A stretch of 64,000 nucleotides of DNA. Source: Chitinophagales bacterium (lineage in GTDB: Bacteria; Bacteroidota; Bacteroidia; Chitinophagales; Chitinophagaceae). Each line of letters opens with the position of its first letter. Position 1 is the first letter of the stretch. The stretch lies in assembly GCA_020636495.1 (NCBI GenBank), contig JACJXQ010000009.1:53823-117822 (forward strand), in the 5' to 3' direction. Under the pieces are notes generated by a model. It was not told the origin of the DNA. It worked only from the letters and a program-made list of their open reading frames with translations, and searched no databases. Shown piece by piece: positions 2,849 through 40,462 of this stretch. A program made the position numbers and the translations under genes.

Positions 2849-5800
2849 CTACCGGGTCAATGTTACACGACCTGCAGCTATTACTTCACCGCCTTGCTGC
2901 AAACGATAGATATATACCCCCGCCGGTAAAGCATGTGTATCCCATACCGCTTTGCCATTGTTATCCAATCTTACTGATCCTGCTTTTTGTCCTACTATAT
3001 TATTCAATTCCACTGTTATTGCTCCTGCAGTTGTTGGTTCGCTGTATTCAAAAATAACATAATCGCGTGCCGGGTTAGGATAGACTTTCAGCAAAGCTTT
3101 CTTATTATCCATATCCCCGATACCTGTAAGCACTTTTACTGTAATACCATTGCTTATAGCAGTTGTGGGTTGCGGACAACGATAGTTGCTCGTCACCTCT
3201 ACCGTTATCACATCATTATCACTGATCGTATTCGCACTCCATTTATAGCTCGTTGCCCCCTGTACATTCTGGCCATTGCGCTTCCACTGGAACTTAGGTG
3301 CCGGACCACCGTTCGTTACTACCGCGGTGAACGTAACATACTCATCTATCTGTAAGGTCCTGTTCGGGTCGGCAGTAATAGTAACCGATGGCGCCAGCCA
3401 TGGCAATACTTTCATATCCACATCATTGCCCTGGTCTGTGTAAGCGGAGCTACACTTTGTATATTCCGTCATGTCGCACCTTACCACATCGCCATGATTC
3501 AGGGTTGTACTGCTGTAAGCAGGAGTATTCGTACCCACAGGGAACCCGTTCACGAACCATTTGTAGGTGGGTGTGCCTGCATAATTATTCGGCAGTGCTG
3601 TGAAGCTTGCTTTGTCGCCTACACATATCGTATCACCCGGTGTAGGGAAAATAACTACGAATGGTAGCGGGTTGATGGTGACCACTGTACTGCCTTCTGC
3701 TGATGTACAGCCATTAACCGTTGCCGTTACCTTGTAAGTACCCGTATCGCCAAACTGCATATTGGCCCGGGTTGGGTTCTGTGTTGTAGCACTGTAGTTG
3801 TTCTTGCCTGTCCATGTGTAAGTAGCTCCTGATATATTGCCAGCCTGTAACTGTAAGGTCTCGCCTGAACACAGCGGACTGCTGTAGCTTGCCGTTGGTG
3901 CGGCAGGTATCGGGTACACGGTAGCAAGGGTACTGTCTTTGAAGGAACAACCATTCAGGTCTACCGTGGCTACATACCAGCCTGTGGCCGATGCCGTACT
4001 GTTGGCTACATATGTGTTCTGCGTATTGGCGCTGAAACTGTTGGGCCCCGTCCATGTATAGGTGGCGCCTGTACTCGAAGTGCTTATATTGATGTAAAGC
4101 GTATCGCCCGCACACTCAGGGCCACTGTTACTTGCCGTCGTGGCTGTTGGCAGTGGTTTCACCAGCACGGTTGCTGTGTCTTTGCTGATACAGCCATTCA
4201 TCGTGGCTGTTACTATGTAGTTGCCCGACATAGCTGTGGTCGTATTGCTTAGGGATGGGTTCTGTTGGGCTGAAGTGTAGCTGTTGGGGCCTGTCCAGCT
4301 ATAGCTTACATTGCTACTGCTGCTCGACGAGGTCAGGTTCAGTGTTTCACCAGAGCATATGGGTGTATTACTACCTGCTACTGGTTTGTTAGGCAATGGT
4401 TTTACCTGTACGGTAAGGGTATCTTTCAATGCACAGCCGTTCAGCGTAGCGGTAACATAATAATCCCCATTATGAGCCGGGACAGCACCGCTGATAAAAG
4501 GACCCGGATTAGTAGAATTGAAACCATTAGGGCCTGACCATGCATAGGTAACTCCTGTTGAGGTAGAGGATGCAGAGAATAGTATGGTTGCGCCCGTACA
4601 CAAAGGACTGTTCACCGACGTGGTGAAGTTGGCAGGACGGGGTTTTACCAGTACCGTTACCGTATCTCTTGAAACACAATTTCCGTTGTTCGCATACAAA
4701 ACATAATCGCCTGACATGGTTGTTGTTGCCCCGGTAATAACAGGATTCTGTGCATTAGAAGAATAACTGCCTGGCCCGCTCCAGCTATAGGTATTAGAAG
4801 AGCCATTGGCCGTACCGAATAACTTCAATGTATCATCGGCACATACAGGGCTGTTAGTAGTAGCAGTGGTGCCCGTAGGGCCGGAACCTGCATATACTAC
4901 TGCTGTGGTAGTATCTTTTGCCTCGCAGCCGTAAATGTATGCGGTGACGATATAATTGCCACCATTGGCAGGAACAGGATTAGGAATAGATGGGTTTTGC
5001 GCAGCTGAGGTAAAACTGTTGGGGCCTGTCCAACGATAGCTGACACCCGATGTGGTCGTAGATGCGGTCAGTCTTAAAGTATCATTATTACAAACAGGGC
5101 TGTTGTTATTGGCTACGGGCTTTGCAGGCACAGTCGTGCCGATGCCTATATTCACGCCATTATCATAAGTAGTATCCTGGCCATTGCTGGATATCATACG
5201 AATACGATAACCACTACCTGTTGTGGTATTGGTTGGTATGATGCCTGTGATTGTATCAGAATAATAAGACGATTTAGTACCTATATTCACCGGGTTTGCA
5301 AAACTTCCCGATGCATCGGACAACTGGAGCGTAAATACATTGTTGGTCTGGAAGAACAATGGGGAAGTATTAGCATAATAGGGTACGCGAATGGTATCTC
5401 CTGCACATAATGTACTGTCTGTGAAGTTGACACCAAAGCGTTTAGCAATTTTCACAACAACAGAATCAAAATAATAATATATAGTTGCATTACTGGTACT
5501 GCATGAAGTAGTAAGGTTACTACCCTGGCGAAACCCGCCAATAGCGATATTGTCATAGGTTGAATCTGCTGTGAAGTTCTTAGTGAGCCTTACCCAGTTT
5601 TGCGTGTCTGATACAACAATATTGGTCCATTCTACTTGTGGCGTCACCCCGGGTGTCGTAGTCGTACTGTAGGAAGAAGGAGCGGCATCAAAAAAATAAA
5701 CTCCTATGTCATTCGTACCACAAGGGGTCACATTGGACAGGTTAACAGAAAGCGACACCTCGTATGTAAATCCTACCTGCATCGGTGTAATAGCCCTTGT

Positions 5801-35999: not shown

Positions 36000-37037
36000 C
36001 TATTCCCGTTCATGTTCTTCCCAACCCTTATCATAACGTTCAAGGGAGGTTTGGTATTTTTTATAAATGATCTTCCTTAGCCTTTTGGGGGCTACCACAC
36101 GTATGCCATCACCAAAACCCATGATCTCTTTCTCTAGCTCAAAGTTCAGCTGTACCTTAATTTGTACCAATATGCTGTTCTTCCACCTTTTAAGTACCTG
36201 TTGAGAATGATGCAATGGTTTTGTTTCAATATATGGCGCGTGTTGGTTGGTTACTTCCAGCAACACAGTGCTGGGCCGCTGGTTACGGGAAACTGTAACA
36301 CCGATGACATCCTTATAAAAATCAGCCGCGGCGACCCGATTATTAGGCAGATATTTTACCTTGTCAGCTATCTTAACACTTACGATCCTGTCCAATGCCA
36401 GGTTCACAATGTCCCCGTCCTCCTTTCTGATACCTACTGCAAACCACCGGTTCTTAAACTCCTTGAGCCACCATACGTGAAAAAAGAATGTATTCGCCTC
36501 CCTTGCTTTAAATGAGCGATATTCCATTTCTACTGCCTTTCGTTCAATGACAGCATTATATATCAGGTCAAGATATTCCAATCCTTTCAGTTGTTCATTT
36601 TTTTCAAACTCAATAACTGAACGGGTATGATGCGCAGCCGTGTACACATGGTCTTCCAGTTTTTGCACTACTTCATTCAGCGATGAGAAATGCGAAAATC
36701 CTTTGAACTGTTTTAACACTTCGACAGCTTCATTCATACGCTCCAGGTCTTGCGGGCTGAGCGGTATATTGGTAATACTGTATTCAGGATCTTCATAGGT
36801 ATAATACTTCTTTTCAGCTATTACAATAGGTGCATTATAACCCAGCTTATCGCTACGCATCATTTGTATATCGGCTTGTACGGTACGTCTGCTGATACCT
36901 TTATCTATGCCTTCGTATTCATATAATGCTTCAGAAACTTTGTCTATAAGCATATCAAGCGTCCATTTACGCCTTCGGTTGCGCAGGCAAGCATCAATAG
37001 TTTTATAACGTATTAGGGCGTTCCTGTTTACAGGCAT
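36000..37037 (-). CDS. HTH + WYL domain transcriptional regulator
   Basis: It starts at the ATG at 37037 (MPVNRNALIRYKTIDACLRNRRRKWTLDMLIDKVSEALYEYEG). The central region (YRSFKAREANTFFFHVWWLKEFKNRWFAVG) is WYL-like. It is divergent from rtcB. Confidence 0.85.
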   Translation of the reverse strand: MPVNRNALIRYKTIDACLRNRRRKWTLDMLIDKVSEALYEYEGIDKGISRRTVQADIQMMRSDKLGYNAPIVIAEKKYYTYEDPEYSITNIPLSPQDLERMNEAVEVLKQFKGFSHFSSLNEVVQKLEDHVYTAAHHTRSVIEFEKNEQLKGLEYLDLIYNAVIERKAVEMEYRSFKAREANTFFFHVWWLKEFKNRWFAVGIRKEDGDIVNLALDRIVSVKIADKVKYLPNNRVAAADFYKDVIGVTVSRNQRPSTVLLEVTNQHAPYIETKPLHHSQQVLKRWKNSILVQIKVQLNFELEKEIMGFGDGIRVVAPKRLRKIIYKKYQTSLERYDKGWEEHERE

Positions 37038-37137
37038 GAGATTTTTTTTGAAAATAATGAAAATAATTCTTACTACGCAGAAAGATTGCGCACATGGGTA
37101 GCATCTTTGTATCATCAAGTTTAAAAACAAGACCAAA

Positions 37138-38547
37138 ATGAAACCATTAACACTGAAGGGAAAAGAATTACTGGCAATGGGGTATCCTGAATCGGAAGCT
37201 ATAGCTTTTGCTATCACCTTTGCTGCTGAAAGATATAATGAGGAAGAAAAGGAAGTTGCGTTAACGCAACTGGCCAAAGTGTTGAGCAATCCCGAATCTT
37301 TTATTGAAGATGAGGCACTGGGAGCATTAGCAGGTAAACTGATAGTGAAAGACGACAACATTGTGCTGCAGGAACAGTTGGAATACGCTGTATATGGTGC
37401 AGAACATATTGAAGATGGAGCGCACAGGCAAATGGAACTGGCCACAAGGCTACCCATCAGCATAGCGGGTGCTTTAATGCCTGATGCGCACCAGGGTTAC
37501 GGATTGCCGATAGGTGGCGTGCTGGCTACAAACAATGCCATCATACCATATGGCGTAGGTGTGGATATAGGCTGCAGAATGTGCCTGAGTATATATGATA
37601 TACCGGAGCAACATTTCAAAGACAATATCATGCAATATAAAAGGGACCTGATAGCTCATACAAAATTTGGTGCCGGAGCAGGTTTCCATGGACAATATAA
37701 AAGTGAGCATGCTGTGTTGGATGATGCTGCATTCAATATGAATACCCTGGTGAAGAGTCTGAAAGACAAGGCATACTCTCAACTAGGTACATCAGGTGGT
37801 GGCAATCACTTTGCAGAGTATGGCATCATAGAGATATTGTCAGAAGATAATGGCTATAATCTGCCAATGGGAAAGTATTTGGCGCTACTGACACATTCCG
37901 GTTCCAGGGGTTTGGGGGCAACAATCGCTAACCACTATACCAAACTGGCAAAAAGCCTGAGCAAACTACCTAAAGAGGTACAGAATCTGGCCTATTTTGA
38001 TCTTGACAGCCATGAAGGACAGGAGTACTGGAAGGCTATGAACCTGGCCGGGAAATATGCCAGTGCTTGTCACGAAGTGATACACGACAAACTAGCATTG
38101 GCAACCGGTGGACAGGTACTGGCAAGGGTGGAGAATCACCACAACTTTGCCTGGAAAGAGCAGTGGAATGGGCAGGATGTGATCGTACATAGAAAAGGTG
38201 CTACTCCTGCGGGTAAGGGTGTCATGGGTATCATACCGGGATCGATGACGGAACCTGGATACCTGGTGAGGGGACGTGGACAAGCCTCTTCTATCAACTC
38301 AGCATCACATGGCGCAGGGCGGCAGATGAGCCGTACACAAGCTAACAAAACATTCAACAGGCAATCGTTGAAAACATTGCTGAGAGAAAAGGATGTGATG
38401 CTGATAGGAGGTGGACTGGATGAGGCACCTGGTGCCTATAAAGACATCAATACCGTAATGGCCGCTCAAACCGACCTTGTAGATGTACTGGCAAGGTTCC
38501 TGCCTAAAATGGTAAGGATGGCAGACGATGGAAGCCGGGAAGACTAA
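37138..38547 (+). CDS. rtcB: RNA 3'-phosphate/5'-OH ligase RtcB
   Basis: MPDAHQGYGLPIGGV, GVDIGCRM, GGGNHFAEYG, HSGSRGLG, ENHHNF and HRKGATPA motifs, including the active-site His region. Confidence 0.95.
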   Translation: MKPLTLKGKELLAMGYPESEAIAFAITFAAERYNEEEKEVALTQLAKVLSNPESFIEDEALGALAGKLIVKDDNIVLQEQLEYAVYGAEHIEDGAHRQMELATRLPISIAGALMPDAHQGYGLPIGGVLATNNAIIPYGVGVDIGCRMCLSIYDIPEQHFKDNIMQYKRDLIAHTKFGAGAGFHGQYKSEHAVLDDAAFNMNTLVKSLKDKAYSQLGTSGGGNHFAEYGIIEILSEDNGYNLPMGKYLALLTHSGSRGLGATIANHYTKLAKSLSKLPKEVQNLAYFDLDSHEGQEYWKAMNLAGKYASACHEVIHDKLALATGGQVLARVENHHNFAWKEQWNGQDVIVHRKGATPAGKGVMGIIPGSMTEPGYLVRGRGQASSINSASHGAGRQMSRTQANKTFNRQSLKTLLREKDVMLIGGGLDEAPGAYKDINTVMAAQTDLVDVLARFLPKMVRMADDGSRED

Positions 38548-38724
38548 GCGGCTGTTTAAAACGAAAATGTTCTTTGAATATAAAAGACTCCTTTGACAAA
38601 AGGAAAAGAAGGTGTTGCTCTTGTGTTTGCGTCAGACCCGATAATGGTTTCTGTATAGCCACATAGTATTGCATGCCACTGGTATGGCAATATGCTGCTG
38701 GGTTAATACATCAACATCCACGAT

Positions 38725-38866
38725 CCAACGTGTTGGAGGTTCGAATCCTCCCTCCGGCTTGCCGGAGTAGCTCAATCAGGTAGAGTAGTTGACCAACGCA
38801 GGTTCGAATCCTGCTTCCCCTTGAGGGAATAGCTTAGTGGACGAAAGCAACGGATTCAGGTTCCGG
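38725..38866 (+). ncRNA. candidate structured RNA: two tandem circularly permuted tRNA-like modules (YrlA-like tRNA mimic)
   Basis: T arms GGAGG-TTCGAAT-CCTCC (38735-51) and GCAGG-TTCGAAT-CCTGC (38798-814). Each is followed by a closed acceptor-like hairpin (CTCCGGC-TT-GCCGGAG; TTCCC-CTTGA-GGGAA), a TA dinucleotide and a D arm (GCTC-AATCAGGTA-GAGT; GCTT-AGTGGACGA-AAGC). An anticodon-like hairpin CGGA-TTCAGGT-TCCG lies at 38851-65. The transcript ends are unknown. Confidence 0.6.
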
Positions 38867-39169
38867 TGATTATGAAGTGGCAGCTTCTGAAATATGCGAT
38901 AAAGAAAGCCCTGTAGCGGCAGGTTTTAAAACGGTTCTCAGAACATTGATAAAACAACTGCTATATGCCAGGAATAAGCAAATACCGTTTGTGTGCATTG
39001 CCATGCTTTGCGTACAGGGATCATTTACAGAATATCGATAGATGACAGGTGTACAATAACCATTGCGATAGCAGATATACTCAAGCTTATTTCCGTGTAC
39101 AGTGGTTGCCGCTACAGTTGCTTTCTTTTTGAAACAGATTAAAAACATGAACACTTAAACCGAATAATT

Positions 39170-40285
39170 ATGCAACGCGTAAGAGTAAAAGCCTACTGGA
39201 TAGGCATGAAATACAAAAACGGGCGGTATATAAAAATGCTGAACGAGGGTACTTACTGGCAGTATGCAAATGAACAGGTGGTAACCTACGACCAGGCGAA
39301 AATATACGTAGCTCCTGACAACATTAATGTATTGCTGCAGGATACGGACTTTGCGGCCGCAGCAACGATCGCAGAGGTTGCGGATAACGAACGTGTCATC
39401 CTGTATGCCAACGGACTGTACAAACAGATACTGCAACCCGGCAAATACATATTATGGAACGCATTTGTGAACTATACAATGGTACGTATAGACCTGAACA
39501 AGGTATATCTGCCTGAAGGTGTAGACAAGGCAGTACTGATGAAGTCTGAGATATCCCGTATCGTTACTGTACATACAATAGAGCCTTATGAAAAAGGGAT
39601 ATTGTACATCAATGGTCAGTTTGATAAAGTGATGGAATCAGGCGTGTACTACTTCATAAAAAATGAAACTCCTGTATTAATACAGAAGGTAGATATGCGC
39701 CTGCAACAGACCGATGTGAACGGACAGGAAATACTGACCAAAGACAAAGCAGTATTGCGCGTAAACTTCTACGCACAATACCGTGTGACAGATATAATGA
39801 AGGCATTGGTAGACAACCGTGACATGAATGGACAACTGTATACCATACTGCAATTGGCCATACGGGAATACATAGGCGGATATACGCTGGATGAATTGCT
39901 GGAAAAAAAGAACGAGATAGCTGGTTTAGTGCTGGAAACTATCCGTAACAAAGCAACACGCATGGGTGTAGACATAACAGACTGTGGAATAAAGGACATC
40001 ATATTACCCGGCGATATGAAAGACATCATGAACCAGGTATTGATAGCTGAAAAAAGGGCGCAGGCAAATGTTATCACCCGCAGAGAGGAGACTGCCGGTA
40101 CCAGGAGCATGCTGAACACCGCAAAGCTGATGGAAGAGAACGAGATGTTGTTCCGTTTGAAAGAAATGGAATACGTTGAAAAGATAGCAGAGAAGATCAA
40201 TGGCATCTCCGTTTCCGGTACAGGTGACCTGATAGGACAATTAAGCAAAATATTTGTACCCACGAAATCAGGTACAAATAAATAG
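39170..40285 (+). CDS. SPFH/band-7 (slipin-like) domain protein
   Basis: The C-terminal half carries a band-7 core (LTKDKAVLRVNFYAQYRV...VDITDCGIKDIILPGDMKDIMNQVLIAEKRAQANVI) and a coiled-coil tail. Confidence 0.88.
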   Translation: MQRVRVKAYWIGMKYKNGRYIKMLNEGTYWQYANEQVVTYDQAKIYVAPDNINVLLQDTDFAAAATIAEVADNERVILYANGLYKQILQPGKYILWNAFVNYTMVRIDLNKVYLPEGVDKAVLMKSEISRIVTVHTIEPYEKGILYINGQFDKVMESGVYYFIKNETPVLIQKVDMRLQQTDVNGQEILTKDKAVLRVNFYAQYRVTDIMKALVDNRDMNGQLYTILQLAIREYIGGYTLDELLEKKNEIAGLVLETIRNKATRMGVDITDCGIKDIILPGDMKDIMNQVLIAEKRAQANVITRREETAGTRSMLNTAKLMEENEMLFRLKEMEYVEKIAEKINGISVSGTGDLIGQLSKIFVPTKSGTNK

Positions 40286-40328: not shown

Positions 40329-40388
40329 GCACATTAAAACAGAAGGTATTTTATAAAAAAAGTCGCCCCTAAGGACGACTTATGAATG

Positions 40389-40462
<74 letters not shown>

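Follow-up and report, generated by a model that had tools for sequence, protein, structure and literature searches.

The DNA considered here, called the window, is a 64,000-nucleotide (nt) stretch of contig JACJXQ010000009.1 from a Chitinophagales bacterium, and it carries an operon for the RNA ligase RtcB. An initial annotation made from the sequence flagged 142 nt directly downstream of rtcB (38725-38866) as two tandem, circularly permuted modules resembling transfer RNA (tRNA). Comparison with other Bacteroidota shows that the flagged segment is a real, conserved structured RNA with two permuted tRNA-shaped modules, and that its conserved genomic partner is the downstream gene for a Band-7/SPFH (slipin) protein.

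The rtcB gene (37138-38547, plus strand; Pfam RtcB, E 2e-83) is followed on the same strand, beyond the RNA, by the Band-7 gene (39170-40285; Pfam Band_7). Divergent from rtcB, on the minus strand, is a gene for a WYL/WCX-domain transcription regulator (36000-37037, start codon at 37037; Pfam WYL and WCX), which is also called, at 341-350 amino acids (aa), in five close relatives. Upstream of rtcB, at 37072-37112, lies an operator-like palindrome, ACTACGCA-N7-TGCGCA (37072-37095), and then a CATCTTTG promoter box of the Bacteroidota -7 type. The pattern ACGCA-N6-9-TGCG has a single match in the window, with 1.55 expected by chance. In loci where the order is RNA, Band-7, rtcB, the palindrome and the CATCTTTG box are found upstream of the RNA. 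Because operons of other genera begin with these two motifs as well, the ACTACGCA palindrome is probably the binding site of the WYL regulator. The plus strand shows no terminator-like site from rtcB through the RNA to Band-7, and gene callers place no gene in the corresponding intergenic gap (575-610 nt) of the five close relatives. Given the shared operator and promoter motifs, the lack of a plus-strand terminator-like site and the lack of a called gene in the gap, rtcB, the RNA and band7 are likely co-transcribed as one operon. The gap also has a minus-strand open reading frame (38870-39154, 94 aa), which shows no conservation at the protein level.

The tRNA-shaped modules and the proposed larger RNA

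Evidence for conservation of the RNA came from a genome scan with the RtcB protein of the window, which yielded 80 Bacteroidota loci at 60-65% protein identity; about 20 of these have the same pair of T loops, spaced 62-69 nt apart. A covariance model built from nine sequences, R1, matched 21 sequences strongly, at 88-182 bits, with no comparable score elsewhere. A second model, R2, for which 20 loci from other genera were used and the window and its near relatives left out, found positions 38722-38892 at 117.8 bits (E 2e-24), its sole match within the 64 kb. Pairing and covariation statistics were calculated for 21 homologues, in an alignment fitted to the covariance model. Because of this fitting, three controls were added: R2 itself, a model-independent RNAalifold prediction, and the tertiary Levitt pair, which joins position 15 in the D loop to position 48 before the T stem. 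The input to RNAalifold was an ordinary MAFFT alignment of the whole intergenic region from the window and its five close relatives (six sequences).

Standard pairs fill 95.6% of cells in the fitted alignment, compared with 72.4% after column shuffling and ~45% when the partners are slid by 1-3 columns, and 33 of the 41 pairs show compensatory change on both sides. All nine helices are supported, among them the CCAAC/GTTG stem of module 1 and the stem of the anticodon-like arm in module 2. Pairing in the four helices of module 1 (helices 1-4) is 93-100%, with compensatory change in 17 of 20 pairs; in those of module 2 (helices 5-8) it is 85-99%, and compensatory changes are again present. RNAalifold recovers both T arms, both acceptor hairpins, the first D arm and the anticodon arm. 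The Levitt pair of module 1 covaries without exception, being G-C in 19 sequences and A-U in two, one of which is the window. The stems proposed in the initial annotation are thus kept, and covary, across orthologous loci. Single-sequence folding of 38720-38870 was no better than that of shuffled sequences (z -0.57) and is uninformative, so the case rests on these comparative data.

Each element placed in the initial annotation was confirmed at its position in the window, on the plus strand. Module 1 (38725-38792), which resembles the bacterial Y RNA-like RNA YrlA, begins with an anticodon-stem-like closing helix, CCAAC at 38725-29 with 38788-92 (GTTG at 38788-91). The sequence GUGUU, equivalent to a variable loop, leads from CCAAC to T arm 1 (GGAGG-TTCGAAT-CCTCC, 38735-51), which is followed by a closed acceptor hairpin (CTCCGGC-TT-GCCGGAG, 38752-67, effectively 6 bp with a CUUG loop) and by UA and D arm 1 (38770-86). 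Module 2 (38798-38865), whose chain is open at the position of the variable loop, consists of T arm 2 (38798-814), a closed acceptor hairpin (38815-29), UA and D arm 2 (38832-48), and an anticodon-like arm (38851-65) with the loop UUCAGGU and CAG as its “anticodon”. In the window, loops of 4-5 nt cap acceptor stems of 5-6 bp, and an anticodon loop is lacking in module 1. Among the homologues, acceptor stems of 5-7 bp are capped by loops of 3-9 nt and have neither a discriminator base nor CCA. Covariation bears out both the permuted order with closed acceptors, proposed for the two modules, and the suggestion that the CCAAC/GTTG stem closes module 1. The locus of Sphingobacterium siyangense (L070 1296-1541) has three modules, with an additional YrlA-like unit ahead of the usual pair.

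In the anticodon-like arm of module 2, 14 of the 21 homologues have a 7-nt loop with U33, and the triplet differs by lineage, being CAG in the window, UAG or AAA in near relatives, and CAA, AAG, GUU, GUA, GUC or UUU elsewhere. Leu-, Tyr-, Asn- and Lys-like triplets are among them. The stem covaries within the window clade (CGGA/UCCG versus UGGA/UCCA). The UUCAGGU loop of the window probably matches the anticodon loop of E. coli tRNA-Leu(CAG). The arm of locus L046 has a 15-nt core that also occurs, letter for letter, in the anticodon arm of a tRNA-Tyr encoded 1 kb upstream. Arrays of 3-6 canonical tRNA genes lie directly 3' of rtcB in L038 (5172-5677), L040 (5334-6101) and L046 (4915-5419), where they separate rtcB from the RNA, and likewise directly 3' of rtcB in L003 (4619-5085) and L036 (6955-7376). 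The families in these arrays (Asn, Asp, Tyr, His, Lys, Leu, Phe, Pro, Gln and Arg) overlap the “anticodons” of module 2.

The initial annotation covered 142 nt; these appear to be the middle of an RNA of ~560 nt, about 38569-39128, with further covarying domains, all on the plus strand. Near its 5' edge is a conserved GUUCUUUGA box (38569-38577) that both the window clade and Pedobacter-type loci retain, the promoter box lying ~25-30 nt before it. A putative hairpin, H0 (38589-38604, UCCUUU-GACA-AAAGGA), was recognized by eye, and its sequence varies in relatives (for example, AUCCC-GAAA-GGGAU). The 5' domain proper (38622-38710) was predicted by RNAalifold from the six relatives. It comprises a closing helix, Pc (38622-40 with 38695-38710); a hairpin, P1, in which UGG (38645-47) and CCA (38659-61) enclose the conserved loop UUUCUGUAUAG (38648-58); and a second hairpin, Hd (38666-77 with 38681-93), flanked by conserved AUAGUAUUG and CAAUAUNCUG. 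The P1 stem covaries, as the UGG/CCA of the window is replaced in other genera by GGG/CCC, GAG/CUC, GGUG/CACC or CCUG/CAGG. Alternative complementary pairs also occur at Pc (AACAUC/GAUGUU, CUAUC/GAUAG and CUGAUC/GAUCAG); the z-scores of the duplexes are modest, and Pc likely exists, the pair changes being convincing by eye.

Downstream of module 2, helix 9 is a 3' hairpin (GAAG 38874-77 with CUUC 38884-87) that is predicted to form an H-type pseudoknot, the whole spanning 38874-38897. The partner of the hairpin loop lies 5-8 nt downstream, and in most relatives the pseudoknot has 4-8 bp formed by unrelated sequences (GGGC/GCCC, GGCCA/UGGCC or UGUAUUCG/CGAAUACG; combined p ~1e-7). A 3' domain of ~230 nt (38901-39128) follows, with inner helices and the conserved motifs UCGG, GAUACCG, AACCAUU, CUCAAG and UUUCCG. 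It would be closed by a long-range helix of ~20 bp (38901-38921 with 39107-39128) that is found at the same place in most loci, from unrelated sequences; the duplex of the window has an energy of -40 kcal/mol and a z-score of -5. Compensatory changes within the 3' domain are seen in the window clade by RNAalifold. A terminal 7-bp helix (38610-16 with 39150-56), which RNAalifold proposed for the window clade and which would end 14 nt before the Band-7 start codon, was rejected, as it is unsupported across genera (mean z -0.3).

Known families do not account for this RNA. Rfam 15 at its gathering scores gave no match at the site, and its large bacterial noncoding RNA classes (GOLLD, ROOL, OLE, HEARO, raiA and others) gave none in the window or in 19 homologous loci. 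Relaxed searches (E up to 10) over 38500-39150 and over L041 1100-1750 gave no relevant match beyond the YrlA core and a hybrid tRNA reading, both discussed below. Viral contigs scanned for the T-loop-pair pattern gave only tRNA arrays, scoring at most 57 bits with R1 as opposed to at least 88 for true homologues, and that sample therefore provides no evidence for phage copies. Carriers of the RNA include cultured Pedobacter, Sphingobacterium and Flavobacterium, among them Pedobacter sp. Leaf176 (L045), P. vanadiisoli (L041), Sphingobacterium siyangense (L070) and Flavobacterium hibernum (L022).

Linkage to Band-7 and alternation with Ro60

The regulator, rtcB and Band-7 proteins were mapped onto all 80 loci. 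In each of the 19 loci where the region upstream of Band-7 could be assessed, the RNA precedes Band-7 in the same orientation, scoring 88-182 bits in 18 of them and ~45 bits in L077. No locus without Band-7 exceeds 56 bits. Wherever the RNA is present, Band-7 is the next gene on its strand and starts 245-440 nt past the modelled RNA segment (277 nt in the window). Gene order is regulator (minus strand), RNA, Band-7, rtcB in 14 loci, and regulator, rtcB, RNA, Band-7 in the window, L014, L022 and L076. The initial annotation linked the RNA to rtcB; the constant neighbor is Band-7 rather than rtcB, given the 14 of the 19 loci in which the RNA precedes Band-7 and rtcB.

Genes for RlaP-family nucleotidyltransferases follow Band-7 in some Pedobacter loci (L048 1127-2975) and in Citrobacter freundii (L201 6128-6913), and in some loci they sit between Band-7 and rtcB. 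The Citrobacter freundii locus has rtcR, Band-7 and RlaP, without rtcB. Neighbors of the RlaP family (RNA repair pathway, pol-beta family) fit an RNA-repair system.

A relationship of module 1 to YrlA had been proposed, with an Infernal search as the check. The Rfam YrlA model (RF02553) matches 38727-38793 at 42.5 bits (E 4.7e-8), which covers the tRNA-like core and is below the gathering score of 69. YrlA-like copies adjacent to Ro60 genes in Bacteroidota also score 38-47 bits, some of them over the full model, so a threshold of 69 discriminates poorly in this phylum, and the curated cut-off appears to miss Bacteroidota YrlA candidates. The match in the window is local to model positions 23-88, leaving positions 1-22 and 89-114 unmatched, in agreement with the earlier remark that no Ro-binding closing stem is present. 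Instead, the closing stem of module 1 has 4-5 bp, beyond which one strand runs into the 5' domain and the other into module 2. Likewise, no domain of the TROVE (Ro60) type was found in neighboring open reading frames, and no tblastn match better than E 0.5 was found in the 64 kb. The likeness to YrlA thus holds for the tRNA-like core of module 1 and does not extend to the gathering score, the Ro-binding helix or a Ro60 neighbor.

The weaker matches in loci without Band-7 are YrlA-like arrays between a TROVE/Ro60 gene and rtcB. In these sister WYL-rtcB loci (L013 283-2900 and L025 757-2800; also L005, L010, L021, L027, L033, L037, L057 and L063), a TROVE/Ro60 gene is followed, upstream of rtcB, by 2-6 single YrlA-like modules that are 110-230 nt apart. 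Orthologous WYL-rtcB loci thus carry either Ro60 with YrlA-like RNAs or Band-7 with the present RNA. The idea that the RNA is independent of Ro is plausible for this specific reason, namely that sister loci swap in Ro60 together with YrlA-like RNAs. A different repeated element lies upstream of rtcB in the Band-7-less Flavobacterium loci L008, L012, L017, L024, L035 and L072 (~25-700); it has a T arm with a CCA-like end, a conserved AATTAATGGTCAATTAAAACTTACTTC segment and a second T-arm-like hairpin.

The Band-7 protein is annotated as a slipin family protein, with a stomatin-like SPFH domain at residues 130-345. By eye, it has no hydrophobic N-terminal segment, and it would accordingly be a soluble protein without a membrane segment. 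In an AlphaFold (AF2) model, three five-stranded beta repeats at the N terminus (residues 1-175) precede the SPFH domain, and a long helix follows it; positions 1-56 of Pfam Band_7 give a weak match to each of the repeats. The closest solved relatives are stomatin, QmcA and HflK, and solved SPFH relatives form rings of 16 to 26 subunits. The full-length model aligns end to end only with chains of Major Vault Protein (MVP). Because the N-terminal repeats alone have no significant match in the PDB (MVP E ~0.1), the vault parallel is an analogy, not a finding. A tRNA-Ala(GGC) gene just 3' of Band-7 (40388-40462, minus strand), which is also present in L037, is probably unrelated to the RNA system.

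Possible roles of the RNA

A model that brings these observations together is that the RNA is the cognate subunit or cofactor of an oligomeric Band-7 scaffold that displays tRNA mimics in RNA repair, a reading to which we give a probability of roughly 55%. On this model, the WYL regulator would leave its operator, and rtcB, the RNA and band7 would be transcribed together. The Band-7 oligomer would be bound by the domains of the RNA that are not tRNA-like, and the tRNA-shaped modules would be displayed to proteins that recognize the shape of tRNA, either recruiting them or competing for them. Because the acceptor ends are closed into hairpins, the modules cannot be charged, and the elbow formed by the T and D loops is intact. 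Candidate targets would be the RtcB ligase, partner nucleotidyltransferases and tRNA-cutting nucleases, and module 2, as a copy of a real tRNA anticodon stem-loop, might be a bait for anticodon nucleases or a competitive inhibitor of them. The Band-7 particle would then be the functional counterpart of the Ro60-YrlA particle. In the initial annotation, the RNA was suggested to be a decoy, a sensor ligand or a substrate in RtcB-linked repair; anticodon-arm mimicry lends that speculation some support.

Several observations weigh against the scaffold model. Binding of the RNA by Band-7 is proposed from gene neighborhood only, and a single molecule uniting the modules with the 5' and 3' domains is presumed. 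The pseudoknot of the window has just 3 bp, GCA (38880-82) with UGC (38895-97), as chosen by RNAalifold. The anticodon arm is reduced or absent in 5 of the 21 homologues (L007, L022, L014, L049 and L058), which indicates that it is not essential. Finally, the invariable position of the RNA 5' of Band-7 fits a cis-acting leader equally well. A bolder extension of the model is tentative and less likely than not: that the rtcB-band7 intergenic region is one ornate RNA of ~560 nt, of a new large noncoding RNA class, in a vault-like SPFH particle that displays two permuted tRNA mimics, one of them an anticodon-arm copy, to capture or fend off tRNA-cutting toxins and to organize repair by RtcB.

A cis-acting leader would act on band7, and also on rtcB if that gene lies downstream, by controlling translation, stability or processing, and it might bind RtcB, the WYL protein or a damaged-tRNA signal. 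Such a role would be consistent with an RNA whose place directly 5' of a co-oriented Band-7 gene never changes, across a structured gap of constant size (~250-340 nt), and with the absence of a terminator-like site between the RNA and band7. The 7-bp helix of the window clade (38610-16 with 39150-56) would also suit a leader, being close to the start codon, but it fails outside that clade (mean z -0.3). Moreover, the homologous YrlA modules of Ro60 loci act in trans (Chen 2014), and a simple leader would have no need of the Levitt pair, the T and D loops and similar conserved tertiary features of tRNA. We consider this explanation rather unlikely. The RNA could also be a sacrificial bait or sensor, with an anticodon nuclease cutting module 2; the cut RNA would soak up the toxin, or a fragment ending in a 2',3'-cyclic phosphate would activate the WYL protein, and RtcB would reseal the break. 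The anticodon loops do mimic real tRNAs and differ between species, with the 15-nt tRNA-Tyr core of L046 as an example; arrays of typically attacked tRNA families (Asn, Asp, Tyr, His and Lys) adjoin the RNA in several loci; and damaged tRNA halves induce the Salmonella rtc operon (Hughes 2020). However, Salmonella YrlA is not cut by the damage-induced nuclease, the arm is missing or reduced in the five homologues listed above, no nuclease gene is linked, and an RNA encoded within the induced operon would be scarce before induction. The bait or sensor idea, which can coexist with the scaffold model, is on balance improbable.

The remaining explanations concern the identity of the RNA. If it were a genuine Ro-binding YrlA, the Ro60 gene would lie elsewhere in the genome. 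The 42.5 bits of module 1, similar to the scores of the Ro-linked sister candidates (38-47 bits), are consistent with this possibility, which is made very improbable by an alignment that ends at positions 23-88 without a Ro-binding helix, by the absence of a TROVE homologue from the 64 kb, and by the alternation of Ro60 and Band-7 across loci. Alternatively, the modules might be remnants of tRNA genes, or circularly permuted tRNA genes whose product matures via a circle made by RtcB. The order of parts is indeed that of a permuted tRNA, with the break in the anticodon loop for module 1 and in the variable loop for module 2, and canonical-order units at the same place in proteobacterial Band-7 loci suggest descent from tRNA. 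Direct readings as tRNA fared poorly. ARAGORN calls no tRNA at the modules, the sole tRNA that it calls in the window being the tRNA-Ala(GGC) mentioned above. With relaxed thresholds, the Rfam tRNA model gives an out-of-register hybrid of D arm 1 and T arm 2, which scores 28.9 bits in the window; in Pedobacter the score reaches 38.5 bits. This hybrid canonical tRNA, whose acceptor would pair the 3' strand of acceptor 1 with the 5' strand of acceptor 2, was rejected, as acceptor pairing in canonical order is at chance level (50.7% versus 49.3% expected, 21 sequences).

Nor do the modules have the parts expected of either kind of gene. A canonical tRNA has a free, paired 5'/3' acceptor end and a discriminator, and here both acceptor stems are closed hairpins; a permuted tRNA gene would have a full 7-bp acceptor, a processable intervening sequence and a complete anticodon arm, a combination that was not found. 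The initial annotation had named intact tRNA genes at this position in relatives as a sign of decayed remnants, and no canonical tRNA is present there in any Bacteroidota relative examined. Compensatory changes maintain the closed hairpins and all of the arms across Bacteroidota orders. With capped acceptor stems and chance-level canonical pairing, the reading as decayed or permuted tRNA genes is the most improbable of the explanations considered.

Relation to known systems

To our knowledge, the Ro60-Y RNA version is the only bacterial tRNA-mimic system of RtcB operons to have been studied so far. The Band-7 loci represent a second well-defined version, common in Bacteroidota and related to the Ro60 version by a swap of both scaffold and RNA. 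They indicate that the tRNA mimics of RtcB systems occur in permuted and canonical topologies, can bear species-specific copies of anticodon arms, and sit within a far larger structured RNA that is missing from Rfam. The question of scaffold versus decoy becomes directly testable, in a tractable second model for the tRNA mimics of RNA repair, and a candidate is possibly added to the short list of large structured bacterial RNAs.

Circularly permuted tRNA genes of the type found in Cyanidioschyzon merolae yield functional tRNAs after circularization and end processing. The present modules share with them the placement of the 3' tRNA half upstream of the 5' half, but here a short hairpin with a capped end takes the place of the acceptor, and module 1 lacks an anticodon loop. 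A more distant parallel is the eukaryotic vault, which combines MVP, with its SPFH-like shoulder, the TROVE protein TEP1 and vault RNA. The likeness is that of an SPFH-related cage-forming protein with a small structured RNA; it is an analogy only: the Band-7 repeats by themselves have no significant match to MVP, and a Band-7 particle is hypothetical.

The closest studied relative is YrlA, which Chen et al. 2014 described as a Ro60-bound RNA whose effector domain mimics tRNA; one version, whose acceptor stem has 7 bp, is a substrate of RNase P and has CCA added. Module 1 has the order of elements of YrlA (RF02553; Chen et al. 2014; Wang et al. 2018), namely closing stem, variable region, T arm, closed acceptor-like hairpin and D arm, together with the conserved bases of the T and D loops and a location in an RtcB operon. 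It differs in having no Ro-binding helix or Ro60 gene, its partner being Band-7, and in being fused to module 2 with its anticodon arm, both inside a putative RNA of ~560 nt. At the level of the operon, the Salmonella Ro60-Y RNA system (rsr-yrlBA-rtcBA) similarly has a divergent regulator, an RNA ligase, a scaffold protein and a tRNA-mimicking RNA, and the Ro60 version of this logic is present in the sister Bacteroidota loci. In the present system, however, an SPFH scaffold stands in place of the TROVE ring, a WYL regulator in place of RtcR with sigma-54, and the RNA is 5' rather than 3' of the scaffold gene.

The class of RNA is not new. According to Wang et al. 2018, Burroughs and Aravind 2016 had already predicted tRNA-like RNAs associated with Band-7 (b7a-tRNA) in RtcB systems, and had proposed Band-7 and Ro60 as alternative scaffolds with cognate tRNA-like RNAs. 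The account in Wang et al. 2018 describes the b7a-tRNA prediction as never validated, and YrlA as occasionally adjoining Band-7. As characterized there, b7a-tRNA shares with the present RNA its nature as a tRNA-like noncoding RNA beside Band-7 in RtcB repair loci; tandem units are a further likeness, with two in Photobacterium. b7a-tRNA, which has no Rfam family, is said to strongly resemble an authentic tRNA, a description that implies a canonical-order cloverleaf and that suits the proteobacterial loci but not the Bacteroidota RNA.

Proteobacterial loci were found through full-length homologues of the Band-7 protein. In Burkholderia stagnalis (L202 4185-4324), a sigma-54 promoter and an extra T arm precede a canonical-order unit (4223-4295) with a 7-bp open acceptor and a 6-nt anticodon loop, without CCA; it is tRNA-??? 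to ARAGORN and reaches 42 bits with the Rfam tRNA model. Photobacterium (L210) has two adjacent canonical-order units, 3626-3697 and 3699-3763 (54 and 46 bits), the second with a 4-bp acceptor, and in Citrobacter (L201 ~4808-4850) just a T arm and a closed hairpin are left. The Burkholderia and Photobacterium units have canonical order with an open acceptor, of 7 bp except in the second Photobacterium unit, whereas the Bacteroidota RNA is permuted with both acceptors closed. Because the arms come in the same order (T, acceptor, D, anticodon, T) in Proteobacteria and Bacteroidota and are paired differently, the comparison suggests conversion between canonical and permuted topologies. The system was therefore already known at the level of prediction, and the Bacteroidota RNA is a distinct, uncatalogued variant of it, set apart by its permuted topology and by a large multi-domain RNA.

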